A stretch of DNA of 32,035 nucleotides from a virus (taxonomy: Duplodnaviria; Heunggongvirae; Uroviricota; Caudoviricetes), in the IMG/VR virus record IMGVR_UViG_2690316263_000015, positions 1 to 32,035 of that record. One strand, written 5' to 3'. Below, in pieces: positions 2,592 through 21,559 of the stretch. A model generated the notes under the pieces. It did not search any database and had not been told where the DNA came from. It saw only the letters and a list, made by a program, of their open reading frames with translations. The number at the start of each line of letters is the position of its first letter. Position 1 is the first letter of the stretch. Both the position numbers and the translations under genes were made by a program.

Positions 2592-3587
2592 GTGACCGTG
2601 AGAGCACTACTGACCCCTGAAATTGCCCCGCGTATGGGGATCGTATTGTTCAGGCCAGGTTCAGAGCTGATGCCCCTGTTTATGCAGGGGCGTGTCCTGC
2701 TGGAGCCTGAGCCGGAACGTTACTCATCTTTCGCCAGTGGTGCCGTTCCGGCGGCATCACAACCGCTGGCGGATGATCCTGCCGTTCGGGCCGTGTTCCG
2801 CAATGAGGCAGTGATCCGTCGTGCTGGTGGCGTGGAATGTCTTGAAAGCTGGTTACTTCGTGAAAAAGGCTGCCAGTGGCCTCATTCCGACTGGCACAGC
2901 GAGAACATGACCACAATGCGACACGCTCCGGGCGCAATCCGTCTGTGCTGGCACTGCGATAACCAGCTGCGCGATCAGTTCACGGAACGGCTGGAATCAA
3001 TGGCAACGGATAACTGTGCCCGCTGGGTGTTGTCTGTTGTGCGTCGGGATCTCGGTTTTGATGACAGTCACGTTGTGACAATGCCGGAACTGTGCTGGTG
3101 GCTGATTCGTAATGATCTGGCGGATGCCTTACCGGAAAGTGCAGCCCGTAAGGCACTGAGATTACCGAAGCCTGTTGTGCCATCTGTCACCCGGGAAAGT
3201 GACCTTGTGCCTTCGGTTCCTGCCACCAGCATCATCCAGGATAAAGCAAAAAAGGTGCTGGCGCTGAAAGTGGATCCGGAGTCGCCGGAGTCTTTTATGT
3301 TACGCCCAAAACGTCGCCGCTGGGTTAATGAAAAGTACACGCGCTGGGTTAAGACACAGCCGTGTGCATGTTGTGGAAAGCCCGCTGATGATCCCCACCA
3401 CCTGATAGGTCACGGTCAGGGTGGAATGGGAACAAAAGCGCATGACCTCTTTGTGTTGCCTTTGTGCAGAAAGCATCACGACGAGCTGCATGCGGATACC
3501 GTGGCATTTGAAGAGAAGTATGGCTCCCAGCTGGAGCTGATATTTCGTTTTATCGATCGTGCGCTGGCAATAGGCGTACTGGCGTAA
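2592..3587 (+). CDS. DUF968 (YdfU-like) protein with C-terminal Cys/His metal-binding motif
   Basis: 331-aa ORF; C-terminus CACCGKPADDPHHLIGHG ... LCRKHHDELH resembles DUF968 proteins found upstream of Q in lambdoid prophages. Start ambiguous (GTG 2592 or GTG 2598 after GAGGTG). Confidence 0.55.
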   Translation: MTVRALLTPEIAPRMGIVLFRPGSELMPLFMQGRVLLEPEPERYSSFASGAVPAASQPLADDPAVRAVFRNEAVIRRAGGVECLESWLLREKGCQWPHSDWHSENMTTMRHAPGAIRLCWHCDNQLRDQFTERLESMATDNCARWVLSVVRRDLGFDDSHVVTMPELCWWLIRNDLADALPESAARKALRLPKPVVPSVTRESDLVPSVPATSIIQDKAKKVLALKVDPESPESFMLRPKRRRWVNEKYTRWVKTQPCACCGKPADDPHHLIGHGQGGMGTKAHDLFVLPLCRKHHDELHADTVAFEEKYGSQLELIFRFIDRALAIGVLA

Positions 3588-3600
3588 GTGGAGAACGAGC

Positions 3601-4353
3601 ATGAACCTTGAAGCCTTACCGAAATATTACTCCCCAAAATCTCCAAAATTGAGCGATGACGCACCGACGACAGGCTCTGGTGGTTTAACAATTACGGATG
3701 TAATGGCTGCGCAGGGGATGGTGCAGTCGAAAGCACCGCTTGGGTTTGCCTTATTCCTGGCAAAAGTTGGTGTTCAGGATCCTCAATTTGCGATTGAAGG
3801 TCTGCTCAATTACGCGATGGCACTGGATAACCCGACATTGAACAAATTGAGTGAAGAAACCCGGTTACAGATCATCCCTTACCTTGTGAATTTTGCCTTT
3901 GCTGATTATTCCAGGTCTGCGGCAAGTAAGGCTCGCTGTGAGCATTGTGCTGGTACTGGATTTCATAATGTATTGCGCGAAGTGGTGAAACACTCCAGAA
4001 GCGGGGAATCTGTTATCAAGGAAGAGTGGGTGAAGGAACTATGTCAGCATTGTCATGGTAAGGGAGAAGTCAGCACAGCGTGCAGAGGGTGTAAGGGTAA
4101 AGGTATTGTCCTGGATGAAAAAAGGACCCGGCTTCATGGCACGCCTGTTTATAAGATTTGTGGGCGTTGCAATGGAAACCGGTTTAGCCGTTTACCAACC
4201 ACACTGGCGCGGCATCATGTCCAGAAGCTGGTACCAGACCTGACAGATTATCAGTGGTACAAAGGATATGCAGATGTCATTGATAAACTGGTTACAAAGT
4301 GCTGGCAGGAAGAAGCATATGCTGAGGCGCAATTAAGAAAAGTGACGAGATAA
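3601..4353 (+). CDS. antitermination protein Q-like late-gene regulator
   Basis: ATG 3601 after GGAGAA. 250 aa with paired Cys motifs (CEHCAGTG ... CQHCHGKG ... CRGCKGKG ... CGRCNG) as in Q-family antiterminators; followed by a promoter plus terminator pair. Confidence 0.7.
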   Translation: MNLEALPKYYSPKSPKLSDDAPTTGSGGLTITDVMAAQGMVQSKAPLGFALFLAKVGVQDPQFAIEGLLNYAMALDNPTLNKLSEETRLQIIPYLVNFAFADYSRSAASKARCEHCAGTGFHNVLREVVKHSRSGESVIKEEWVKELCQHCHGKGEVSTACRGCKGKGIVLDEKRTRLHGTPVYKICGRCNGNRFSRLPTTLARHHVQKLVPDLTDYQWYKGYADVIDKLVTKCWQEEAYAEAQLRKVTR

Positions 4354-4384
4354 ATGATTTTCGCCGAAGATGGCGACATAATGC

Positions 4385-4413
4385 TTGCATTTTTCAAAAA
4401 ATATGGATAAGAT
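4385..4413 (+). promoter_or_regulatory. putative Q-dependent late promoter (PR'-like)
   Basis: TTGCAT (4385-4390), 17-nt spacer, TAAGAT (4408-4413), about 30 nt downstream of the Q stop and about 45 nt upstream of an intrinsic terminator. The arrangement mimics lambda PR'/tR'. Confidence 0.35.
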
Positions 4414-4458
4414 TTTTCCAACGATGGGCTTTGTATGTCTACCGTTGATAAGATTTAA

Positions 4459-4486
4459 GAACCCGCCACTGAGCGGGTTTTTTTAT
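4459..4486 (+). terminator. intrinsic terminator (tR'-like)
   Basis: ACCCGC-cactga-GCGGGT stem-loop followed by a T7-8 run (aacccgccactgagcgggttttttta). Confidence 0.6.
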
Positions 4487-4606
4487 GCCTGAAAAACGGT
4501 ACAGGACGTTAAACGCGCTGGTGGTTGCGAATATTGGTCTTTCGGCTTGTATTTTTGTAAATCGATATATACTTATCTTGTGACCAGTAATGTCAGGGCA
4601 ATTGAT

Positions 4607-5350
4607 ATGAATGAAGCTTGTTCTGTTGTTTTTGTTCATTCCCCGTTTGTTGTGCTCTTTGAAGGAAAAGAGCTCTCTCTGGAAAGTGGTAGTGCACTTC
4701 TTGTCAGGGGGGGAGCTGGATCGTTATTGCCCTTTTCGGAATGTTTTCGGCGAATAAGTCTCAGTGAATCGACAATTATCCGTTACCTGTTGTGTGGAGA
4801 CGAAAAACAGGATGTAGTTTTAGTCCGGCAAATACCACGATATCTTTGCGTGAGTTTTCCCAAGGCAGAATTGATGGGCATCCTGATTGATTATCTTTGT
4901 GAGGAAAAGATTCATACGGACAATTTAGCGGAAATGCTTTCCTTTTCGTGTCTGGCGTTTTTCTCATCAGAGAAAATGTTTTCGTCGTTTCTGACCGCGT
5001 GTATTGGCAATATTAGTGACAGGCTTAGTGCATTGTTTCGTACGGACATTGCAGCAAACTGGACTCTGAGAGATGTGTCTTCGCGGTTATGTATCAGTGA
5101 AAGTTTGTTAAAAAAAAGACTGAAAGAAGAAGGCACCTGTTTCAGTGAGTTGTTGCTTACAGAGAGAATGAGAATGGCAGCAATGCTGTTGAATCAATCT
5201 CGTTGCGCCATCAACAGAATCGCTGCTCAGTGTGGCTATAATTTTACATCTTATTTTATCAGCGTATTCAGGAGTTATTTTGGTGTTACACCGGCAGGTT
5301 ACAGGATGGCTGCATTCAATGAGATGAGTTTAAGTGTTACTCAAGAATAA
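4607..5350 (+). CDS. AraC-family transcriptional regulator, AppY/EnvY-like (moron)
   Basis: ATG 4607. C-terminal double helix-turn-helix (WTLRDVSSRLCISESLLKKRLKEEGTCFSELLLTERMRMAAMLL ... AAQCGYNFTSYFISVFRSYFGVTPAGY); the N-terminal CSVVF motif recalls AppY. Gene is visibly AT-rich relative to neighbours and followed by its own terminator. Confidence 0.8.
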   Translation: MNEACSVVFVHSPFVVLFEGKELSLESGSALLVRGGAGSLLPFSECFRRISLSESTIIRYLLCGDEKQDVVLVRQIPRYLCVSFPKAELMGILIDYLCEEKIHTDNLAEMLSFSCLAFFSSEKMFSSFLTACIGNISDRLSALFRTDIAANWTLRDVSSRLCISESLLKKRLKEEGTCFSELLLTERMRMAAMLLNQSRCAINRIAAQCGYNFTSYFISVFRSYFGVTPAGYRMAAFNEMSLSVTQE

Positions 5351-5374
5351 TTGAATTTTGCACTCATTGAAAAC

Positions 5375-5399
5375 AGGCTCGCTGCGGCGGGCCTTTTTT
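5375..5399 (+). terminator. intrinsic terminator after the AraC-family gene
   Basis: AGGCTCGC-tgcg-GCGGGCCT hairpin followed by TTTTTTAT. Confidence 0.55.
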
Positions 5400-5537
5400 A
5401 TATCCGCGCCACGTCCGGCGCACATCAAAAAAACCACAGAGCCTTTCAGGGGTGAGCTTACGGGATGGTCAGTGTGACTTTCTCTGTGGGCTGGTCACCC
5501 CCGGGCGCAGGCTCACCCACTAAAAGGAAAAGTCACG

Positions 5538-5963
5538 ATGTTTGGTATTTTCAAAAAGAAAACCCGCAAGGCCATTACTGAAGTGAAGAAGATGGAGAAC
5601 CGCGACGCAGTGGAGGCGACCGTCTGGGGCGCGTATTCCATAGCATTCGCCGACGGCACCTGTGATGCGAAAGAAATCGCTGTACTGGAAAAAACCATTG
5701 CAGCACTTCCTGCCTTTGCGCCGTTCTCCGGTGAGATTGCACAAATGAGTGCAAATATCCGCGCCCGTTATGAAGCGTCACCTCGTAGTGCGAATGCTCA
5801 GGCTTTGCGTGAACTGGCTGATGTGGCAGGAACCGCCGAAGCGGTTGATGTGCTGTGCCTGTGTCTCGATATTGCTGACCAGGATGGCATTGGTCCGGAT
5901 GAAGAAGCGCAGCTCAAGAAAATTGCTCAGGCGCTGCAGTTGCCGCTGGAGCAGTACCTGTGA
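5538..5963 (+). CDS. TerB-family (tellurite-resistance TerB-like) protein
   Basis: ATG 5538 after AAAGGAAAAG. 141 aa; the fold pattern (VWGAYSIAFADGTCDAKEIAVLEK ... VLCLCLDIADQDGIGPDEEAQLKKIAQALQL) parallels the two DG-containing helical repeats of TerB. Confidence 0.65.
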   Translation: MFGIFKKKTRKAITEVKKMENRDAVEATVWGAYSIAFADGTCDAKEIAVLEKTIAALPAFAPFSGEIAQMSANIRARYEASPRSANAQALRELADVAGTAEAVDVLCLCLDIADQDGIGPDEEAQLKKIAQALQLPLEQYL

Positions 5964-6112
5964 AAAGTGCGCGCCTTGTGCTGGCTGCCATCCTGCTGTT
6001 TCTGGTAGTGGCGGTGGATTTCACCGGACGGCTGATGTCGGTGCTGGCAGATGGTGTGCTGGTGGCGATGGCGCTGGCCGTACTCTGGCCTTTACTGCGT
6101 AAATCTGAATAA
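5960..6112 (+). CDS. small hydrophobic protein (50 aa), hypothetical
   Basis: GTG 5960 overlaps the TerB stop (GTGA). Translation VKSARLVLAAILLFLVVAVDFTGRLMSVLADGVLVAMALAVLWPLLRKSE is almost entirely one or two transmembrane helices. Too short for the ORF track. Confidence 0.3.
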   Translation: MKSARLVLAAILLFLVVAVDFTGRLMSVLADGVLVAMALAVLWPLLRKSE

Positions 6113-6199
6113 CACCACACAAAAGGTATCTGCGGGTGCCTTTGACGGGTGTTTTTTACGGGTCGTTGGTGGCCCTTTTTTATTTACAGGAGAAAAAGT

Positions 6200-6592
6200 A
6201 TGTCTGAACCCTTGTCCGGTTCCGGTACGGCTGCGGCGCTCGGCGGGGCGACGGTATTCGGGCTGTTTACCGGAACGGATTTCGGGATTGTGTTTGGGGC
6301 GTTCGCTGGGGCGTTATTTGTGGCAACGATGCCGCAGGCGCTTTCAGCCTGGCGTGTGGCGGCGCATTTTCTGGTGTCGTTTATCGTTGGCGTGCTGGGT
6401 GCGCATGTGCTGTCAGCCTGGATTGCATCAAAAACAGGTTATGACGGTACATCGGCGGATGCACTGTGTGCGGTGCTGGTGGCGGTGGTGTCGGTGAAGA
6501 TTCTCTCGTTCATCCACCAGCAGGATATTGCATCGCTGGTGTCCGGCCTGTTCTCCCGCCTGCGGGGTGGAGGAGGCGGCAATGTTAAGTAA
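6200..6592 (+). CDS. putative holin (multi-transmembrane lysis protein)
   Basis: ATG 6200 after AGGAG (6188-6192). 130 aa with Gly/Ala-rich hydrophobic segments and a charged C-terminus; two genes upstream of the endolysin. Confidence 0.45.
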   Translation: MSEPLSGSGTAAALGGATVFGLFTGTDFGIVFGAFAGALFVATMPQALSAWRVAAHFLVSFIVGVLGAHVLSAWIASKTGYDGTSADALCAVLVAVVSVKILSFIHQQDIASLVSGLFSRLRGGGGGNVK

Positions 6593-6857
6593 CCTTCCCG
6601 GATTGCTGAATGTGGCGTTATGCACGGTTATCGTGCTGACGCTCTTTTTTTATCGTCGTCGTGATTCCAGACATAAACCGCTGATGTCATGGCTGGCCTG
6701 GTTGCTGATGCTGCTGTATGCCTTTGCGCCCCTCAGCTATCTGTGTGGTCGCCCGTTAGCAACGGGCTGGCTGGAAGTGTTTTTTAATCTGCTGTTCTGC
6801 GTGCTGGTGATACGCGCGCGCGGGAACGTCACAAAAATCTTTCCATTATTGAGGTGA
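6582..6857 (+). CDS. lysis-cassette membrane protein (holin/antiholin-like)
   Basis: ATG 6582 after GGAGGAGG, overlapping the upstream stop. 91 aa with about three hydrophobic helices (LLNVALCTVIVLTLFFY, WLAWLLMLLYAFAPL, VFFNLLFCVLVI). Stop overlaps the endolysin SD. Confidence 0.4.
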   Translation: MLSNLPGLLNVALCTVIVLTLFFYRRRDSRHKPLMSWLAWLLMLLYAFAPLSYLCGRPLATGWLEVFFNLLFCVLVIRARGNVTKIFPLLR

Positions 6858-6859
6858 AT

Positions 6860-7237
6860 ATGTCGGGTAAATTCAGATTCAGTCGTCGCAGCGAAAAGAA
6901 TCTGGAGGGCGTTAAACCACAGCTGGTTGCTGTCGTTCGCCGTGCGCTGGAGCTGACGGAGGTTGATTTCGGTATTACGGAAGGGCTGCGCACGAAAGAA
7001 CGCCAGAAACAGCTGGTCGCGGAAGGGAAAAGCCAGACCATGAACAGCCGCCACCTGACCGGTGATGCGGTGGATGTTGTTGCCTGGGTTGGCAGCCAGG
7101 TGTCATGGGACTGGCCTCTGTACGAGAAAATCGCGCAGGCATTTAAGCAGGCTGCCGCAGAGCTGGGAACAGCCATCGAATGGGGCGGGGACTGGCGGAC
7201 GCTTAAAGACGGCCCACATTTTCAATTGAAGCGATAG
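6860..7237 (+). CDS. endolysin, M15-family peptidase (L-alanyl-D-glutamate endopeptidase-like)
   Basis: ATG 6860 after GAGGTG. 125 aa; segments GLRTKERQKQLVAEGKSQTMNSRHLTGDAVDV and GGDWRTLKDGPHFQL match the VanY/M15 Zn-peptidase endolysin pattern. Confidence 0.75.
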   Translation: MSGKFRFSRRSEKNLEGVKPQLVAVVRRALELTEVDFGITEGLRTKERQKQLVAEGKSQTMNSRHLTGDAVDVVAWVGSQVSWDWPLYEKIAQAFKQAAAELGTAIEWGGDWRTLKDGPHFQLKR

Positions 7238-7253
7238 CTTGCAAAACATACAG

Positions 7254-7276
7254 GGCCGCCATGAGCGGCTTTTTTA
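7254..7276 (+). terminator. intrinsic terminator after the endolysin gene
   Basis: GCCGC-catga-GCGGC followed by TTTTTTATT. Confidence 0.5.
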
Positions 7277-7307
7277 TTGCTCAAAAAACGAAAGAACGGA
7301 GGTACGT

Positions 7308-7589
7308 ATGTACGCGCTGAAAAAAATCACGGTAACGGAAGATGGGCGCCAGGTTGAAGAAGTGCATGTTCTGGGGAATATGTATCGCCTGGAATTTTAC
7401 CCGCGCAACACTCACCTTGCTGCCCTGGTGGAGTATTGCCTGGATGGAAATGTACCATGCATTTCGGTGGAAAAAACGGATGAGGCCTACATCACTACGC
7501 TGGCGGGTGACACGGTTCGTTGTATCTGTCGCGGTGACACTAAAGCCAGGAATGAAATAGCCAGATGCCGCACCCAGGGCAGTAAATAA
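7308..7589 (+). CDS. hypothetical Cys-rich protein (93 aa)
   Basis: ATG 7308 after GGAGG. No transmembrane segment; six Cys residues. Bracketed by terminators on both sides. No family recognised. Confidence 0.4.
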   Translation: MYALKKITVTEDGRQVEEVHVLGNMYRLEFYPRNTHLAALVEYCLDGNVPCISVEKTDEAYITTLAGDTVRCICRGDTKARNEIARCRTQGSK

Positions 7590-7596
7590 AAAAACA

Positions 7597-7630
7597 AAAC
7601 CCCGGCTGCTGGAACAGTCCGGGGTTTTTA
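7597..7630 (+). terminator. intrinsic terminator
   Basis: CCCCGGCTG ... CAGTCCGGGG stem followed by TTTTTAGTTTT. Confidence 0.6.
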
Positions 7631-7720
7631 GTTTTCACGTCAAAGAGGAAATTGTGAGTAGTGAGTACGGAGAAAATCCTCGTGGGAAAGTATAAAAGAT
7701 TCTTTTTGAGGTTGTCCATT

Positions 7721-7834
7721 ATGAAAGGTATTGAAGTGGAAACTCCCGCGAGCCTTGATTTGACAAGGGCTGCGGCCTTTGCAATTCGCCTTGTGGCGGT
7801 CGCTGTTCTGATTTGGGCTGTGCGTTGGTGGTGA
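7721..7834 (+). CDS. small single-transmembrane protein (37 aa), hypothetical
   Basis: ATG 7721. Translation MKGIEVETPASLDLTRAAAFAIRLVAVAVLIWAVRWW. Stop TGA 7832-7834 sits 1 nt before the next ATG. Confidence 0.25.
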   Translation: MKGIEVETPASLDLTRAAAFAIRLVAVAVLIWAVRWW

Positions 7835-7835
7835 T

Positions 7836-8018
7836 ATGACGCGAAAACACTGGACACACAGAATGCCGCGAACGGCGGTGAAATGGGCACTGGTAGCGAT
7901 ACTGGTGCCTTTTTTCCTGGTGGGCTGCGTCAGCCTGGATAAGGCGCGCCAGCTTTTCGATACAGCTTCTCAGGTCTGTGAAATTGTTGATAGTGTCCGG
8001 CAGTGTATGCAGAACTGA
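7836..8018 (+). CDS. small lipoprotein (60 aa; lipobox LVGC), hypothetical
   Basis: Signal peptide with basic N-region, hydrophobic core WALVAILVPFFLVG, then Cys. Predicted mature peptide about 29 aa (CVSLDKARQLFDTASQVCEIVDSVRQCMQN). Confidence 0.4.
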   Translation: MTRKHWTHRMPRTAVKWALVAILVPFFLVGCVSLDKARQLFDTASQVCEIVDSVRQCMQN

Positions 8019-8060
8019 CCGACGGTGAGAGCAGAATATTTTTTAGAGGAGCGAAATTCT

Positions 8061-8411
8061 ATGCCATCACAAATCCCTCGTGCATGCCGTAAGCGAGGCT
8101 GTGCAGGCACAACGACGGACAGTTCTGGCTACTGCGATAAGCATCGCGGCGAAGGTTGGACACAACATCAACGCGGACTGAGCCGCCACCAGCGTGGCTA
8201 TGGCTCGAAATGGGATGCCATACGTGCGCGCATACTGAAGCGTGATAATCATTTGTGTCAGAACTGCCTGCGCAATGGGAGAGCCGTTGAAGCCAGAACT
8301 GTGGACCACATCATTCCGAAAGCGCATGGCGGTACGGATGCAGACGGTAATCTGCAGAGCCTGTGCTGGCCATGCCACAAGGCGAAGACGGCCCGTGAAC
8401 GGCTTAAGTGA
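8061..8411 (+). CDS. HNH endonuclease (packaging-associated)
   Basis: ATG 8061 after GAGGAG. Cys pairs (CRKRGCAG, CDKH) plus HNH core (VDHIIPKAHGG ... GNLQSLCWPCH); sits directly upstream of terminase small subunit, as in HK97-type packaging modules. Confidence 0.8.
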   Translation: MPSQIPRACRKRGCAGTTTDSSGYCDKHRGEGWTQHQRGLSRHQRGYGSKWDAIRARILKRDNHLCQNCLRNGRAVEARTVDHIIPKAHGGTDADGNLQSLCWPCHKAKTARERLK

Positions 8412-8535
8412 TAATGATTCTCAACTGCCAGAGGGGAGGGCAGGTCAAATCCCTGTGACCTGACGTCTTCCGGACTGCCCGCCCCATCGTTTTTTTATAC
8501 CCGCGAAAAATGAAATTTAACCAGGAGTGCCGCAT

Positions 8536-9030
8536 ATGGCTGGAACGGCGGGGCGTTCCGGGCGTCGCCCCAAGCCAACGGCGCGCAAGGTGCTGGCCGG
8601 AAACCCCGGCAAGCGAGCCCTGAATAAAGATGAACCTGTTTTTACGCCCATCAAAGGTGTTGAGCCACCGGAGTGGTTCGCTGAAGAAGATCTCCCTCTC
8701 GCCACGACCATGTGGCAACTGACAACCAAAGAACTCTGCGGTCAGGGCCTGCTGTGCGTGACTGACCTTGCGGTGCTTGAGCGGTGGTGTGTGGCCTATG
8801 AGTTCTGGCGGCGTGCCGTGAAAAATATTGCCAGACAGGGCAACACCATCACTGGTGCAATGGGCGGCAGGGTCAAAAATCCGGAGCTGACCGCCAAAAA
8901 AGAACAGGAGTCCGAGATGAGCAGCACGGGGGCAATGCTCGGACTCGACCCCAGCAGCCGCCAGCGTCTGATTGGCCTGGCGGGGCAGAAGAAAGCCACT
9001 AACCCGTTTCTGAAAATCATCGAGTCATGA
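8536..9030 (+). CDS. terminase small subunit (P27-family type)
   Basis: ATG 8536. N-terminal [30 protein letters not shown] is characteristic of P27-family small terminase subunits; overlaps the large subunit start (ATGA). Confidence 0.8.
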
Positions 9031-10760
9031 GCCGGAAATCTTACCCCAACGTAAATGCTGCCAATCAGTATGCCCGTGATGTCGTGCGCGGAAAGATTGT
9101 GGCCTGCCAGTTTGTGATTCAGGCCTGCCAGCGCCATCTTGATGACCTGATGGCGGAAAAAAGTAAGTCGTTTCGTTACCGCTTCGACAAGGACCTGGCT
9201 GAACGGGCCGCCAAATTTATTCAGCTGTTGCCGCACACCAAGGGTGAGTGGGCATTTAAGAGGATGCCCATCACGCTGGAGCCGTGGCAGCTCTTTGTGA
9301 TCTGCTGCGCGTTTGGCTGGGTCAATAAAGGCTCCCGGCTGCGCCGCTTCCGTGAGGTGTATACCGAAATCCCCCGTAAGAACGGCAAATCAGCAATCTC
9401 TGCCGGTGTTGCCCTGTATTGTTTTGCCTGTGATAACGAGTTTGGCGCGGAAGTGTATTCCGGTGCCACGACAGAGAAACAGGCGTGGGAAGTCTTTCGC
9501 CCGGCGCGACTGATGTGTAAACGCACACCCATGCTGACGGAAGCGTTCGGGATTGAGGTTAACGCCTCAAACATGAACCGTCCGGAGGATGGCGCGCGGT
9601 TTGAACCGCTGATCGGTAACCCCGGTGATGGTTCATCACCCCACTGTGCGGTGGTGGATGAATATCACGAGCACGCCACCGATGCGCTTTATACCACGAT
9701 GCTTACCGGGATGGGGGCGCGACGTCAGCCACTGATGTGGGCCATCACCACCGCCGGGTACAACATTGAGGGGCCGTGCTACGACAAGCGGCGGGAAGTT
9801 ATCGAGATGCTCAACGGTTCGGTACCCAACGATGAACTGTTCGGGATCATCTATACCGTTGACGAAGGCGATGACTGGACCGACCCGCAGGTGCTGGAAA
9901 AAGCCAACCCGAATATTGGCGTGTCGGTTTATCGCGAATTTTTGTTAAGTCAGCAGCAGCGTGCGAAAAATAACGCCCGTCTGGCAAACGTCTTTAAAAC
10001 AAAACACCTCAATATCTGGGTGTCGGCGCGTTCGGCGTATTTCAACCTGGTGAGCTGGCAGAGCTGCGAGGATAAATCACTGACCCTTGAGCAGTTCGAG
10101 GGGCAGCCGTGCATTCTGGCCTTTGACCTGGCGCGTAAGCTGGATATGAACAGCATGGCGCGACTTTATACCCGCGAGATTGACGGTAAAACGCATTACT
10201 ACAGTGTGGCCCCGCGTTTCTGGGTACCGTATGACACGGTGTACAGCGTCGAGAAAAATGAAGATCGCCGGACAGCCGAACGCTTTCAGAAATGGGTGGA
10301 AATGGGCGTTCTGACTGTTACCGCTGGTGCGGAGGTGGATTATCGCTACATCCTCGAGGAGGCCAAAGCGGCGAACAAAATCAGCCCGGTCAGTGAGTCA
10401 CCCATCGACCCCTTCGGGGCGACCGGGCTGTCGCATGACCTTGCTGATGAAGACCTGAACCCCATCACCATCATTCAGAACTACACCAACATGTCCGATC
10501 CGATGAAAGAGCTGGAAGCGGCGATTGAATCGGGGCGCTTTCATCATGACGGCAATCCCATCATGACCTGGTGTATCGGCAACGTGGTCGGCAAAACCAT
10601 TCCGGGTAACGATGATGTGGTGAAGCCTGTCAAGGAGCAGGCGGAAAACAAAATCGATGGTGCGGTTGCACTGATTATGGCGATCGGTCGGGCAATGCTC
10701 AAAGAACCCGACGATTTCCTCTCATCTCTTGATCCGGACGATGCTCTCTTAATTCTATGA
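9027..10760 (+). CDS. terminase large subunit
   Basis: 577 aa. ATPase region ([25 protein letters not shown], Walker-A-like) and C-terminal nuclease region; position and size typical of HK97-type TerL. Confidence 0.9.
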
Positions 10761-18250: not shown

Positions 18251-20158
18251 ATGGCTGATAATTTTCAGCTGAAAGCCATCATCACCGCCGTTGACAGGCT
18301 ATCCGGCCCGCTTAAAGGTATGCAGCGTCAGCTTAAGGGATTTCAGAAAGAAGTCTCCAGCCTTGCTCTGGGCGCTGCCGGGGCGGGTACTGCAATAATG
18401 GGGGCACTGGTACTCCCTGTAAAATCAGCCATCACCCTTGAATCGAAGATGGCTGATGTCCGCAAAGTGGTGGACGGTCTGGATACGCCGGATGCGTTTA
18501 AGGCCATGACGGAGCAGGTGCGTGACCTGTCAACCGAACTGCCTATGTCGGCGGAAGGTATCGCTGAAATCGTGGCGGCGGGTGGTCAGGCCGGGATTGC
18601 ACGTGATGAACTGATGCAGTTTGCCACTGATGCGGTGAAGATGGGCGTGGCCTTTGATACCACGGCTGAAGAGTCCGGGCAGATGATGGCCCAGTGGCGT
18701 ACTGCGTTTAATATGACGCAGGATGAAGTGGCCGGGCTGGCTGACAAAATCAACTACCTTGGTAATACCGGCCCGGCGAACGCGAAGAAAATCTCCGATA
18801 TTGTTACGCGTATTGGTCCTTTAGGTGGTGTTGCAGGTGTGGCTTCCGGCGAAATCGCGGCAATGGGGGCAACCATTGCCGGGATGGGCGTGGAGTCAGA
18901 AATTGCCGCCACAGGGATCAAGAACTTCATGCTTTCCCTGACCGCGGGAAATTCTGCGACAAAATCGCAGAAACAGGCATTGCGTTTTCTGCGGATCAAT
19001 CCGAAGAAATTAGCTGCTGATATGCAGAAAGATGCCCGGGGCACCATGCTGTCTGTACTGGATGCGATGGCTAAAGTGCCTAAAGAAAAACAGGCAGCTG
19101 TGCTGAATGCCCTGTTCGGGAAAGAGTCTCTGGGCGCGATAGCACCTCTGCTGACTAACCTTGATTTGTTGCGTACCAACTTCAGGCGGGTTGCGGATTC
19201 CCAGCAGTATGGCAGTTCGATGCAGAAGGAATATGCTTCGAGGGCAGCGACGACGGAAAACCAGCTTTTACTTCTGCAAAATCAACTTGATGCCATTTCT
19301 TCCACGCTGGGGGAAACGTTTTTTCCTGAGGTTAATGATGGTCTTGAAGCGGTAAAACCGCTCCTTGAGGAAGTGAGAACGTTTGTCCGTGAAAACCCGG
19401 AGCTCGTTAAGACCATTGCTAAAATCGGTCTGGCCTTACTGACGGTGGGAGCCGCTGCAGGCTCTTTGTCCAGAATTATGAAAGTTCTCGGCGGTGTGAT
19501 GAATATGACGCCTGCTAAGGGGCTGATTGCTCTTCTGGTTGGTGGCGCTTACCTCATTATTGATAACTGGGAAACCGTAGGTCCTGTCATAAAAAAAGTC
19601 TGGCACGTGATGGATGAAACGGCGCAGGCGATGGGGGGATGGGAAACTGTTCTGAAAGCGATTGCCCTGTTTATGGCAACCAAATGGGTTGCTGACGTTA
19701 CCAAATCCATTACCGCAGTGACCAGAGAGATGCGTACGCTGGGGAAGGTATCGGCAGAAACGGGATTGATGGGGAAAGGCCGCGGCTTTATCGGGAAGGC
19801 CGGGGTATATGGTTTTCTGGGAACCCTGATGTATGAGCCGGTTAAAGATACTCTGGAAAGTGTTGTTCCTGAAGATACGGTTAACTGGCTGGATAATAAA
19901 GGGCTGTTTCTGGCTTCAGACTGGACGCCTTTTTTTGATCGTAAAGAGTACGAGCAATATCAGGCCAGCCTGAGTCAGTACAAACCCAATGTTCCGCTGT
20001 TGAATCCATCTTCTTCCATGACACAGCACAGCGAGCTGAAAGTCACGTTCGAGAATGCTCCGCCAGGTATGAAGATAATTGATGTACCGGACAAAGCCGA
20101 TCCCCTGATGAAAATCACGCACGATGTGGGGTATTCCCCTTTTCGTTTTCCACGATAA
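18251..20158 (+). CDS. tail tape measure protein
   Basis: ATG 18251 after GAGGAG. 635 aa, alpha-helical, Ala/Gly-rich with hydrophobic internal segments; canonical position. Confidence 0.85.
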   Translation: MADNFQLKAIITAVDRLSGPLKGMQRQLKGFQKEVSSLALGAAGAGTAIMGALVLPVKSAITLESKMADVRKVVDGLDTPDAFKAMTEQVRDLSTELPMSAEGIAEIVAAGGQAGIARDELMQFATDAVKMGVAFDTTAEESGQMMAQWRTAFNMTQDEVAGLADKINYLGNTGPANAKKISDIVTRIGPLGGVAGVASGEIAAMGATIAGMGVESEIAATGIKNFMLSLTAGNSATKSQKQALRFLRINPKKLAADMQKDARGTMLSVLDAMAKVPKEKQAAVLNALFGKESLGAIAPLLTNLDLLRTNFRRVADSQQYGSSMQKEYASRAATTENQLLLLQNQLDAISSTLGETFFPEVNDGLEAVKPLLEEVRTFVRENPELVKTIAKIGLALLTVGAAAGSLSRIMKVLGGVMNMTPAKGLIALLVGGAYLIIDNWETVGPVIKKVWHVMDETAQAMGGWETVLKAIALFMATKWVADVTKSITAVTREMRTLGKVSAETGLMGKGRGFIGKAGVYGFLGTLMYEPVKDTLESVVPEDTVNWLDNKGLFLASDWTPFFDRKEYEQYQASLSQYKPNVPLLNPSSSMTQHSELKVTFENAPPGMKIIDVPDKADPLMKITHDVGYSPFRFPR

Positions 20159-20182
20159 CGCAGTCCTTTTTGAGGTCAGTCT

Positions 20183-21559
20183 ATGGATTTATCCTCATTT
20201 CCCACCCGACCTTCATTACTTTCGTCGTCTTCAGGCTGGCGTGACAGACTTCAGGACGCGTCATTTCGCGGCGTATCGTTTAAGGTTGAAGAAGAAAGTG
20301 CGGGAACCGGTCGCCGTGTGGAAACACACGAATACCCGAACCGCGACAAACCCTATACCGAAGACCTGGGGAAAATCACTTTCCGCCCGTCCATCACAGC
20401 TTATGTGGTGGGAGATGACTGCTTTGACCAGCGCGATCGCCTGATTGAAGCGCTGAATAAACCCGGTCCCGGCACGCTTGTCCATCCGACTTACGGTGAG
20501 CTGAAAGTCTGTGTTGACGGGGAAGTTCGGGTCAGCACATCGAAGAGTGAAGGGCGTATTGTCCGCTTTGACCTGAAGTTTGTCGAAGCGGGAGAACTCT
20601 CTTACCCCACTTCAGGTGCGGCGACGGCGCAGACGCTGATGTCATCCTGTTCTGCACTGGATGACTGCATCAGTGACAGCTTCAGTGGTTTCAGTATCGA
20701 TGGCGTGGCAGATTTTGTGCAGAACGACGTTATTGGTAATGCCAGCATAATGCTGGGGTATGTTTCTGATACGATGAAAGTGGTGGATTCTGCCGTATCG
20801 GATGCTGCCAGGCTGTTGCAGGGGGATATCTCGGTACTTCTGCCGCCGCCATCGTCAGGCAAAAATTTCGTTGAGCAGGTGCAGAAAATGTGGCGTACCG
20901 GGAAACGCCTTTATGGTAACGCCAGCGACCTGGTCACCATGATCAAAACGCTTTCCGGTGTCAGCCTCGGCAGCGATCTGCAACCGCGCGGCGTCTGGAA
21001 AACGGACAGTAAAACCACCGCCACGGCGACGCAGCAGCGTAACGTGGTTGCCAGCACCCTTCGTACGACCGCAATCAGCGAAGCGGCGTATGCCGTCACA
21101 CGATTGCCTGCGCCAACAACTTCCGCGGTGATGCAGAATGCCACAGTGGGGCAGTCAACAACACCCGCGCAGAGCACCGGCTGGCCTTCTGTCACGCATC
21201 CGGCACTGAACAATGCACCGGCGGTGAAAAACACGGTTGACCTGCCAACGTGGGAAGAACTGACCGACATTCGCGACACACTGAATACGGCAATTGATAA
21301 GGAGTTGTCCCGTACAACCAGTGATGCGCTGTTTCTGGCGCTGCGCCGGGTGAAAGCAGATCTGAATGCGGATATCAACACGCGCCTTGAACAGTCTGCA
21401 CGGATCATTCAGCGCACACCGGATGAGGTTTTACCCGCGCTGGTGCTGGCGGCGACCTGGTTTGATAACGCGGCGCGTGACGCGGACATTATCCGGCGTA
21501 ATGCCATTACGCATCCCGGCTTTGTGCCGGTGATCCCTCTGAAGGTGCCAGTGCAATGA
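20183..21559 (+). CDS. DNA circularisation protein (Mu gpN-like)
   Basis: ATG 20183 after GAGGT. 458 aa; the N-terminal region (RDRLQDASFRGVSFKVEEESAGTGRRVETHEYPNRDKPYTEDLGK) is typical of the Mu N-type domain. Confidence 0.7.
   Translation: MDLSSFPTRPSLLSSSSGWRDRLQDASFRGVSFKVEEESAGTGRRVETHEYPNRDKPYTEDLGKITFRPSITAYVVGDDCFDQRDRLIEALNKPGPGTLVHPTYGELKVCVDGEVRVSTSKSEGRIVRFDLKFVEAGELSYPTSGAATAQTLMSSCSALDDCISDSFSGFSIDGVADFVQNDVIGNASIMLGYVSDTMKVVDSAVSDAARLLQGDISVLLPPPSSGKNFVEQVQKMWRTGKRLYGNASDLVTMIKTLSGVSLGSDLQPRGVWKTDSKTTATATQQRNVVASTLRTTAISEAAYAVTRLPAPTTSAVMQNATVGQSTTPAQSTGWPSVTHPALNNAPAVKNTVDLPTWEELTDIRDTLNTAIDKELSRTTSDALFLALRRVKADLNADINTRLEQSARIIQRTPDEVLPALVLAATWFDNAARDADIIRRNAITHPGFVPVIPLKVPVQ

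Follow-up and report, generated by a model that had tools for sequence, protein, structure and literature searches.

A 60-residue lipoprotein gene that closes an enterobacterial prophage lysis cassette is a candidate for the outer-membrane step of lysis without an i-spanin

Phage lysis of a Gram-negative host is thought to need one device per envelope layer. We analysed a DNA stretch of 32,035 nucleotides from a virus of the class Caudoviricetes (hereafter the window; positions 1 to 32,035 of the IMG/VR record IMGVR_UViG_2690316263_000015), focusing on two very small open reading frames (ORFs) at positions 7721 to 8018: ORF1, which encodes a peptide with a transmembrane (TM) helix, and ORF2, which encodes a lipoprotein. 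We propose, with moderate confidence, that the task of ORF2 in lysis is the outer-membrane step, which it would perform without an i-spanin, the inner-membrane subunit of two-component spanins, and that ORF1 is an accessory membrane peptide. The layout given in a preliminary description of this region, namely two tiny ORFs of 37 and 60 residues separated by a single nucleotide (position 7835), after a terminator and before an HNH gene, agrees with the coordinates collected in Table 1.

ORF2 was followed in 80 IMG/VR loci plus genome loci, and its neighbours were classed by tblastn. In every locus with enough upstream sequence (92 loci), the order is holin8 (Phage_holin_8), holin3_7 (Phage_holin_3_7), endolysin, optional small ORFs and ORF2, the endolysin being either an M15 peptidase, as in the window, or a GH108 muramidase, which takes its place in many relatives. 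The module found 3' of ORF2 varies: some loci have HNH and a terminase of the P27 type, others the lambda-type Nu1/gpA. ORF2 is therefore part of the lysis module and not of the packaging module. ORF2 starts 14 nucleotides past the stop codon of the M15 gene in 33 loci. In divergent relatives of ORF2, which share 35-60% identity with it (CVTLEKARNWFGIAADVCDAVNDMKKNCDD is one example), the lipobox and the two additional cysteines are retained, and the gene starts 0-4 nucleotides past the endolysin gene or overlaps it. Loci L101 and L103 combine a lambda-S-type holin, an M15-like endolysin and the lipoprotein, with gaps of 0-3 nucleotides, and locus L105, which belongs to a Mu-like phage (GemA, Mor, Mu portal), carries holin8, holin3_7, GH108 and the lipoprotein, the last with an ATGA overlap. 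The minimal cassettes of the family are made of one holin, an endolysin and ORF2. Salmonella and Citrobacter relatives, reached via the holin, show the same cassette order with an intact ORF2, and ORF2 is present in all intact holin8 cassettes examined. The linkage of ORF2 to the endolysin is thus strict over at least four phage backbones. Since ORF2 occurs both in the contractile-tailed phiP27 and in a lambda-like siphovirus with gpJ (phiSTEC1575-Stx2k), this distribution over different tail types argues against a receptor-specific role.

The ORF2 family is narrow and enterobacterial: a profile search run exhaustively over 1.84 billion representative proteins gave only 24 matches. Among 5426 complete E. 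coli genomes, 313 (~6%) contain ORF2 at the DNA level, with up to 7 copies per genome, and 1316 contain ORF1. Only 4 of 50,697 deposited phage genomes carry ORF2, and the gene is never named there. The sequence PP818812.1, deposited as Actinobacillus pleuropneumoniae phage vB_Apl-pPE4, contains at 20079-20258 an ORF2 that is 90% identical to that of E. coli and sits in a phiP27-like region, an odd host label for an Escherichia-type module. Neither ORF matched a family of Pfam, NCBIfam or PADLOC; ORF2 belongs to phrog_7528 and ORF1 to phrog_4493, phrog_1115 and phrog_3246, which are PHROGs of unknown function.

Both ORFs are real genes under purifying selection. Over ~100 copies, the ratio of nonsynonymous to synonymous substitution rates (dN/dS) of ORF2 was 0.26 for the whole gene and 0.20 for its mature part, compared with 0.91 and 1.67 in the other two frames. 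ORF1 gave 0.36 (off-frame, 1.04 and 1.49) and the neighbouring endolysin 0.11. Conservation across related prophages, which had been left as a check on the pair, holds with both ratios below 1 and with ORF2 intact at 60 residues in 86 of 93 copies (six others merely lack the stop codon), frameshifts being found in decayed prophages. The 60-residue form of ORF2 is favoured because codons 1-9 show a dN/dS of 0.23 and because the GGTGGTGAT motif, which is similar to a Shine-Dalgarno (SD) sequence, lies directly 5' of the ATG at 7836; codons 10-30 gave 0.40, and many gene callers place the start at M10 (51 residues). A dual M1/M10 start, by analogy with holins, was rejected, M10 being V, I, T, A or Q in relatives. 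For ORF1, initiation at the upstream GTG codons would give 57 residues (7661) or 50 residues (7682). PHROG 4493 fits the 57-residue form (3e-23) better than the 37-residue form (7e-16), and the ORF1 paralogue of locus L049 starts with an ATG at the equivalent of 7682.

The ORF2 precursor has a basic and conserved n-region of unusual length, a 14-residue hydrophobic core (WALVAILVPFF in the h-region) and a consensus lipobox, L28-V29-G30-C31, with cysteines at positions 31, 48 and 57. The LVGC lipobox and the three-cysteine mature peptide of the preliminary description were thus found again, the mature peptide having 30 residues (C31-N60) instead of about 29. This is the only credible lipoprotein signal in the 32-kb window. 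Besides M1, only G30, C31, C48 and C57 are invariant in an alignment of 33 members reaching down to 35% identity. The residue that follows the lipidated cysteine sets Lol sorting (the +2 rule), and valine at this position directs a lipoprotein to the outer membrane. ORF2 has a valine, and so no Lol-avoidance residue, at +2, which implies that the protein is sorted to the outer membrane, as this rule predicts. C48 and C57 would be periplasmic cysteines, whose disulfide bonds, if any, could be either intramolecular or intermolecular.

AlphaFold2 models mature ORF2 as one continuous helix, at low confidence (pLDDT 64), and Jpred assigned 83% helix to the mature part of the phiP27 homologue (Kongari et al. 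2018, BMC Bioinformatics 19:326). Residues 7-24 of the mature peptide have a hydrophobic moment of 0.56, and L10, A14, V17, V21, V24 and M28 form a seam with a 4-3-4-3-4 spacing that has C18 and C27 on its flanks. The mature peptide contains no proline and has a net charge of -1. Because such a helix would be only ~4.5 nm long, far below the width of the periplasm, ORF2 should be unable to reach the inner membrane. A profile search of the PDB returned only designed helical repeat proteins, which we consider spurious matches. A Tat signal was rejected as well, the RR motif being confined to the divergent clade, with R-T in the main clade.

No Rz/Rz1 homologue was detected by tblastn in any of the ORF2 loci. 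In 98 loci, the DNA within 3.5 kb of ORF2 was scanned for ORFs that combine a single TM segment at the N-terminus with a tail of 45 residues or more. Nothing recurrent emerged, the matches being off-frame noise or pieces from inside Nu1 or ParB. Neither phiP27 nor phiSTEC1575-Stx2k, both examined as complete genomes, has an i-spanin-like ORF, an Rz/Rz1 or another small late lipoprotein. No cognate i-spanin, that is a type II inner-membrane protein with a periplasmic coiled-coil, was thus found in the window, within 3.5 kb of ORF2 in the 98 loci or in the two genomes, and the 30-residue mature part of ORF2 falls short of a combined length that bridges the periplasm; what ORF2 shares with o-spanins, the outer-membrane subunits, is the lipoprotein signal and a lysis-cassette location beside holin and endolysin. 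From these negative searches, we conclude that the ORF2 family is a spanin-slot lipoprotein without an i-spanin.

The gene is already in the literature, as its phiP27 homologue, 92% identical to ORF2, figures in a spanin catalogue. There, the two-component spanin of phiP27 is classed as "separated", its two subunits each standing as a singleton family, the o-spanin at 20706-20861 and the i-spanin at 20348-20542 (Kongari et al. 2018, BMC Bioinformatics 19:326). The o-spanin was given a mature part of 30 residues, and the combined periplasmic length of 62 residues was the shortest among the 677 genomes surveyed (Kongari et al. 2018). This o-spanin corresponds to the M10 form of the ORF2 homologue (3029-3184 of our phiP27 locus, L002). 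The published i-spanin is a 64-residue, TTG-initiated ORF (L002 2671-2865) located antisense within a 90-residue minus-strand ORF (L002 2655-2927, that is phiP27 20332-20604). The minus-strand ORF belongs to phrog_36812, and the i-spanin ORF has no PHROG and was found only in phiP27, being absent from the window and from the other loci. It is probably a false call. In the RefSeq record of phiP27, the annotated L32 (L002 2953-3108) uses another frame than the conserved lipoprotein ORF (2996-3184), and the conserved lipoprotein gene is unannotated in this record and in those of vB_Apl-pPE4 and GER2. A survey of Shiga toxin (Stx) phages reported Rz in 277 of 279 phages, and its cluster C, with two phages and a canonical metallopeptidase endolysin (pham 762), matches the P27-type cassette. 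We infer that these two phages are the two without Rz, which is our deduction and not a statement of that survey.

ORF2 could still be an ordinary o-spanin whose partner was missed, the latter being a distant phage gene, an atypical membrane protein of the cassette or a co-opted TolA- or TonB-like host protein. This would agree with the classification of the phiP27 homologue as an o-spanin by Kongari et al. (2018) and with the conserved periplasmic cysteines, as in spanins. In addition, spanin genes can be far from the holin and endolysin genes, as in T4, and the window covers only ~32 kb of prophage. However, the two complete genomes offer no candidate, none recurs in the 98 loci, the published partner is restricted to phiP27 with the doubtful features described above, and cassettes reduced to holin, endolysin and ORF2 exist. 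We consider a missed partner unlikely, while granting it some weight.

ORF2 is the last gene of a cassette composed of holin, holin, endolysin, optional small membrane peptides and lipoprotein, and in the reading that we prefer it would be made late from the Q-antiterminated transcript. As judged from its sequence, the precursor would be exported by Sec, lipidated at Cys31 and cut by signal peptidase II, and the valine at +2 would let Lol carry the product to the inner leaflet of the outer membrane. There, it may form a ~29-residue amphipathic, coiled-coil-like helix, and oxidation of Cys48 and Cys57 would probably lead to disulfide-linked oligomers. ORF2 would thereby fill the slot held by Rz/Rz1 in other phages with no phage i-spanin, and most likely destabilise the outer membrane directly after the endolysin has removed the peptidoglycan support, its action being closer to that of a bacteriolytic lipoprotein of the bacteriocin-release or entericidin type than to that of a membrane-fusing spanin. 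ORF1 would be a separate and dispensable peptide of the inner membrane, basic or polar at its N-terminus and ending in a TM helix, translationally coupled to the next gene (ORF2 here, Rz/Rz1 in lambdoid phages) through Trp-Trp-stop codons that supply the SD, and it would probably act as a lysis accessory or timing factor. The minimal family cassette provides three genes, for holin, endolysin and lipoprotein, for a three-layer envelope. A bolder claim, that a 30-residue disulfide-capable outer-membrane lipopeptide is, on its own, the third-step lysis factor of widespread enterobacterial temperate phages, is made only tentatively, and we see it as possible rather than probable.

Several points speak against a role of ORF2 in lysis of the outer membrane. 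A lipopeptide of 30 residues with a net charge of -1, hence non-cationic, has no demonstrated way to rupture this membrane, and a host-encoded or distant partner is possible. The signal and its processing are judged by a sequence rule only, and the helix model is of low confidence. ORF2 and 33 family members gave no Pfam match at E<=1, whether to colicin lysis proteins, entericidin, Rz1 or others, and a full-text literature search with the peptide sequences retrieved no paper from the library searched. The position in the spanin slot is circumstantial, since ~13% of surveyed phages have no recognised spanin. The function given to ORF1 is essentially guesswork. Finally, decayed prophages in Raoultella and in Cronobacter, together with one locus in Salmonella, have a frameshifted ORF2. 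These frameshifts look like decay in defective prophages, and the Cronobacter cassette also lacks holin3_7 and the endolysin. The frameshifted or truncated copies lie at 4983-5221 in locus L112 and at ~4280-4890 in loci L113-L118.

A different function would be superinfection exclusion or receptor masking, with ORF2 acting like the lipoproteins Cor (phi80/N15) or Llp (T5): it would obstruct an outer-membrane receptor of the host and so protect the lysogen, or the progeny from adsorption to debris. Llp is a small outer-membrane lipoprotein with disulfide-capable cysteines, a description that would also suit ORF2, and ORF2 sits at a module boundary, a frequent moron site, with a terminator 5' of the ORF1/ORF2 pair. 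However, it co-varies with the genes for holin and endolysin and shows no such link to genes for tails or receptor binding, the virions being of three unrelated tail types (contractile, lambda-J and Mu-like). The distance of 14 nucleotides to the endolysin in 33 loci leaves no room for an ORF2 promoter, and a scan of the window revealed no plus-strand promoter-like site able to express ORF2 in a lysogen. ORF2 has no PADLOC or Pfam match either. The Cor-type role suggested in the preliminary description is thus disfavoured, and we hold it to be improbable compared with a role of ORF2 in lysis.

Regarding ORF1, its conserved core is the C-terminal helix AFAIR[LI]VA[VI]AVL[IV]WA[VI]RWW, preceded by a variable N-terminus (MKGIEVETPASLDLTR, MSADFIR or MKNGLELKAPVTDDISR), and the P27-type and lambdoid alleles differ by synonymous changes or by Ile/Val/Leu swaps. 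With one TM helix, a place in the cassette and a distribution that makes it dispensable, ORF1 matched none of the holin families of Pfam and PHROG. In most P27-type loci, a hairpin and a conserved leader of ~90 nucleotides are found 5' of ORF1, and a diverged form of them in lambdoid loci. The hairpin (7596-7634) is terminator-like on both strands and is faced by a minus-strand sigma70-like site (TGGACA-18-TATACT, 7718..7689, 10/12 matches). The predicted minus-strand RNA of ~85 nucleotides (7682 to 7598, fold z=-4.2) would be antisense to the ORF1 leader, and on the plus strand a predicted long-range pairing would sequester the ORF1 SD. This layout resembles that of type I toxin-antitoxin systems. 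ORF1 might then be a type-I-toxin-like or moron membrane peptide controlled by an antisense small RNA, its place before ORF2 being incidental, and hairpin, leader and ORF1 do move as one module. Nevertheless, several ORF1 variants have unrelated upstream regions without leader or promoter, and ORF1 always has the orientation of the late operon that contains it and is coupled to the lysis gene behind it. An Rfam scan of positions 5000-9000 gave nothing significant, and ORF1 bears no likeness to known type I toxins. Because the promoter-like hexamers overlap the SD and start region of ORF1, their conservation is not independent evidence. A toxin, as had been considered for the pair, is hence a weak option that concerns ORF1 only, and one we find quite improbable.

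The distribution of ORF1 shows that it is not the missing partner of ORF2 and that the two genes are independent. ORF1 is missing in 52 of the 92 ORF2 loci and in all divergent ORF2 relatives, the pair being seen in ~40 loci. A very common 37-residue allele, P0133, occurs in lambdoid prophages of enterohaemorrhagic E. coli, where an S-type holin gene is followed by that of an R21-type lysozyme, then, after ~220 nucleotides, by ORF1 and, one nucleotide further on, by Rz with embedded Rz1; the same ORF1 layout was found in PhiR5_1. The pair is thus facultative, because ORF1 also lies one nucleotide 5' of Rz/Rz1 in lambdoid Stx-type prophages. The junction TGGTGGTGAtATG is identical 5' of Rz and 5' of ORF2, and the Trp-Trp-stop codons of ORF1 match the extended SD GGAGGUGAU at 8 of 9 positions, suggesting, through complementarity to the 3' end of 16S rRNA, that they act as the SD of the downstream gene. 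In terms of the tight coupling described initially, the one-nucleotide junction is real and the partnership is not obligatory. Natural read-through fusions in which the TGA of ORF1 is mutated show how thin this boundary is: the protein cluster P0005 is ORF1 fused to ORF2 in the ORF2 frame, and in the clusters P0125 and P0126 ORF1 continues into another frame of the ORF2 region.

A minimal two-component spanin, with ORF1 as the inner-membrane half and ORF2 as the outer-membrane half, as the one-nucleotide spacing, the translational coupling, the combination of a TM peptide with a lipoprotein and the ~40 paired loci might suggest, is very improbable and by distribution close to refuted, given that ORF1 is so often missing, that it also precedes a complete Rz/Rz1 and that its chain stops (RWW) right behind the TM helix, which leaves no periplasmic domain, or ~16 residues if it were oriented N-out, and hence a pair unable to span the periplasm. 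Of the spanin-like module proposed earlier, the spanin slot of ORF2 and the listing of its phiP27 homologue as an o-spanin remain, but the pair as a module does not. We conclude that ORF1 is a small membrane peptide that lysis cassettes may carry or lack and that is coupled to the next gene for the outer-membrane step, be it ORF2 or Rz/Rz1; that it is a lysis accessory or timing factor is our guess. Behind the endolysin gene and ahead of the spanin or ORF2 genes, up to three different small single-TM ORFs can be stacked one after the other (phrog_1115, phrog_4906 and ORF1-like phrog_4493), in both P27-type and lambdoid cassettes, for example at ~4662-5000 of locus L049 and 2213-2561 of locus L003. 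The paralogous phrog_1115 and phrog_4906 ORFs lie there in L049 and PhiR5_1. They constitute a variable mini-array of membrane peptides.

Table 1. Position of ORF1, ORF2 and neighbouring features in the window
Feature	Position	Strand	Description
Holin-like gene 1, first gene of the cassette	6200..6592	+	Phage_holin_8, PF16931, Pfam E=7e-23
Holin-like gene 2	6582..6857	+	Phage_holin_3_7, PF05449, Pfam E=1e-21; phrog_217 holin
Endolysin, M15 metallopeptidase	6860..7237	+	PF13539 E=6e-12; phrog_465 endolysin E=3e-75
93-residue Cys-rich soluble ORF, between endolysin and terminator	7308..7589	+	phrog_33497 E=8e-50
Terminator-like hairpin, bidirectional	7596..7634	.	A-run, CCCCGG...CCGGGG stem, T-run; stem 7600-7605 / 7619-7624; delimits the ORF1 module on its 5' side; from sequence, scan and folds
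ORF1 leader	7635..7720	+	Alternative GTG starts 7661, 7682; SD GAGG 7709-7712
ORF1	7721..7834	+	ATG start, TGA stop, 37 residues, C-terminal TM helix; MKGIEVETPASLDLTRAAAFAIRLVAVAVLIWAVRWW
Coupling junction TGGTGGTGAtATG	7824..7838	+	Trp-Trp-stop codons of ORF1 as SD-like GGTGGTGAT, 1-nucleotide spacer
ORF2	7836..8018	+	ATG start, TGA stop, 60 residues, lipoprotein; MTRKHWTHRMPRTAVKWALVAILVPFFLVGCVSLDKARQLFDTASQVCEIVDSVRQCMQN
ORF2 signal peptide, residues 1-30	7836..7925	+	n-region TRKHWTHRMPRTAVK, h-region, lipobox residues L28-V29-G30; from alignments
RNA hairpin inside ORF2	7885..7916	+	11 bp then U6; from scan and fold
ORF2 mature lipopeptide C31-N60 (30 residues) and stop	7926..8018	+	CVSLDKARQLFDTASQVCEIVDSVRQCMQN
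HNH	8061-8411		3' of ORF2
terS	8527-9030		3' of HNH
terL	9027-10760		3' of terS

Within ORF2, the hairpin listed in Table 1 covers codons 17-27, includes two G-U pairs and is terminator-like (-18.9 kcal/mol, z=-3.3). Loci L101 (46% amino acid identity) and L109 retain it, with changes on one side only, whereas L103 and L105 do not. Synonymous diversity (pS) is lower in codons 10-30 of ORF2 (0.16 vs 0.27). This hairpin may be an attenuator or terminator, or a by-product of repeated Leu-Val codons.

Concerning the other neighbours, the phrog_33497 ORF that follows the endolysin is optional, being present in a minority of loci, lacks a TM segment and stands outside the conserved core. Three plus-strand ORFs are found 5' of the holin genes: a 267-residue ORF (4547-5350) that reads by eye as AraC-family-regulator-like, a 141-residue TerB-like protein (5538-5963) and a 50-residue DUF3927-type protein with two TM segments (5960-6112). 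The last two labels come from Pfam matches, one of them faint, of genes with the same length and position in related loci. All three resemble cargo of the moron type placed after Q and before the lysis genes. The 141-residue protein was considered as a second lipoprotein and rejected: the copy of the window is TerB-like and soluble, and a lipoprotein of equal length (141 residues) in phiSTEC1575 is an unrelated moron adjoining Q.

What appears to be new here is the linkage to the endolysin at the level of the ORF2 family, the absence of an i-spanin together with the probably false identification of the published partner, and the independence of ORF1 from ORF2. For the ~13-15% of phages without recognisable spanins, disruptin is the only characterised alternative means of breaching the outer membrane. 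The ORF2 family offers a tractable test case in E. coli, with a three- or four-gene cassette whose last gene encodes a 60-residue lipoprotein without inner-membrane partner. If ORF2 suffices for outer-membrane rupture, the assignment of o-spanin and i-spanin in phiP27 would have to be revised, and a new lysis mechanism and a minimal outer-membrane-active lipopeptide would be at hand. Since the gene occurs in Stx-converting phages (phiP27, phiSTEC1575-Stx2k), its role, if true, would also bear on the release of Stx from P27-type prophages. If the 30-residue lipopeptide alone is sufficient, it would add a third class to the outer-membrane disruptors, next to the spanins and the cationic disruptin. 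Its action would start at the inner leaflet of the outer membrane and involve no link to the inner membrane, and ORF1-like TM peptides placed before ORF2 or Rz/Rz1 would form a general level of accessory lysis control that has so far gone unrecognised. Conversely, should ORF2 have no part in lysis, its strict linkage to the endolysin would itself need an explanation.

Among known systems, lambda Rz1 and related o-spanins (PF06085) resemble ORF2 in having a precursor of ~60 residues, an outer-membrane lipoprotein as product (predicted in the case of ORF2), the position of last cassette gene and conserved cysteines that for ORF2 would be periplasmic, and both Rz/Rz1 and ORF2 are preceded by ORF1 with the same one-nucleotide junction. 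However, Rz1 has 10 prolines and is unstructured, whereas ORF2 has none and is predicted to be helical. The two share no sequence similarity (PF06085 was not matched by ORF2 at E<=1), and ORF2 has no Rz-type partner and is neither embedded in nor overlapped by another gene. The separated spanin of phiP27 is similar in that its singleton o-spanin is the ORF2 homologue (92% identity), with the difference that the published assignment is purely bioinformatic and that the paired i-spanin is absent elsewhere. The u-spanins (T1 gp11) are also encoded by a single gene, carry an N-terminal lipoprotein signal and serve the outer-membrane step. Their chain includes a periplasmic stretch of ~100 or more residues and closes with a TM domain, and ORF2 has neither, its C-terminus (...VRQCMQN) not being hydrophobic.

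Bacteriocin release proteins (BRPs) and colicin lysis proteins, as well as entericidin B, are lipoproteins with mature parts of ~27-35 residues, encoded by the last gene of an induced operon, that perturb the envelope without an inner-membrane partner, and the signal peptide of BRPs is stable. BRPs and colicin lysis proteins permeabilise the outer membrane in a manner that depends on OmpLA. ORF2 is like BRPs (PF02402) and entericidin B (PF08085) in size, with its 30-residue mature part, and in its last-gene position, and its conserved signal peptide recalls that of BRPs. In contrast, BRPs lack the two extra conserved cysteines and the amphipathic helix predicted for ORF2, and colicin lysis proteins are not amphipathic. 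The entericidin style put forward in the preliminary description is therefore a reasonable functional analogy for ORF2 and not a sequence membership, neither PF02402 nor PF08085 being matched. Disruptin (phage phiKT gp28) is another small phage protein that, as a single component, has been proposed or shown to take the place of spanins, but it is a soluble, cationic, antimicrobial-like peptide, whereas ORF2 would be lipid-anchored with a net charge of -1. As for ORF1, the closest comparison is Lcc6 of Shewanella phage LambdaSo: both are small single-pass membrane proteins outside the known holin families, and Lcc6 affects lysis. Lcc6 has an N-terminal TM segment with a cytoplasmic tail, lies far from the lysis cassette and is essential, whereas ORF1 has a C-terminal TM helix, lies in the cassette and is dispensable by its distribution. 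The two proteins are not homologous, and Lcc6 serves as a precedent for unexpected small lysis proteins.

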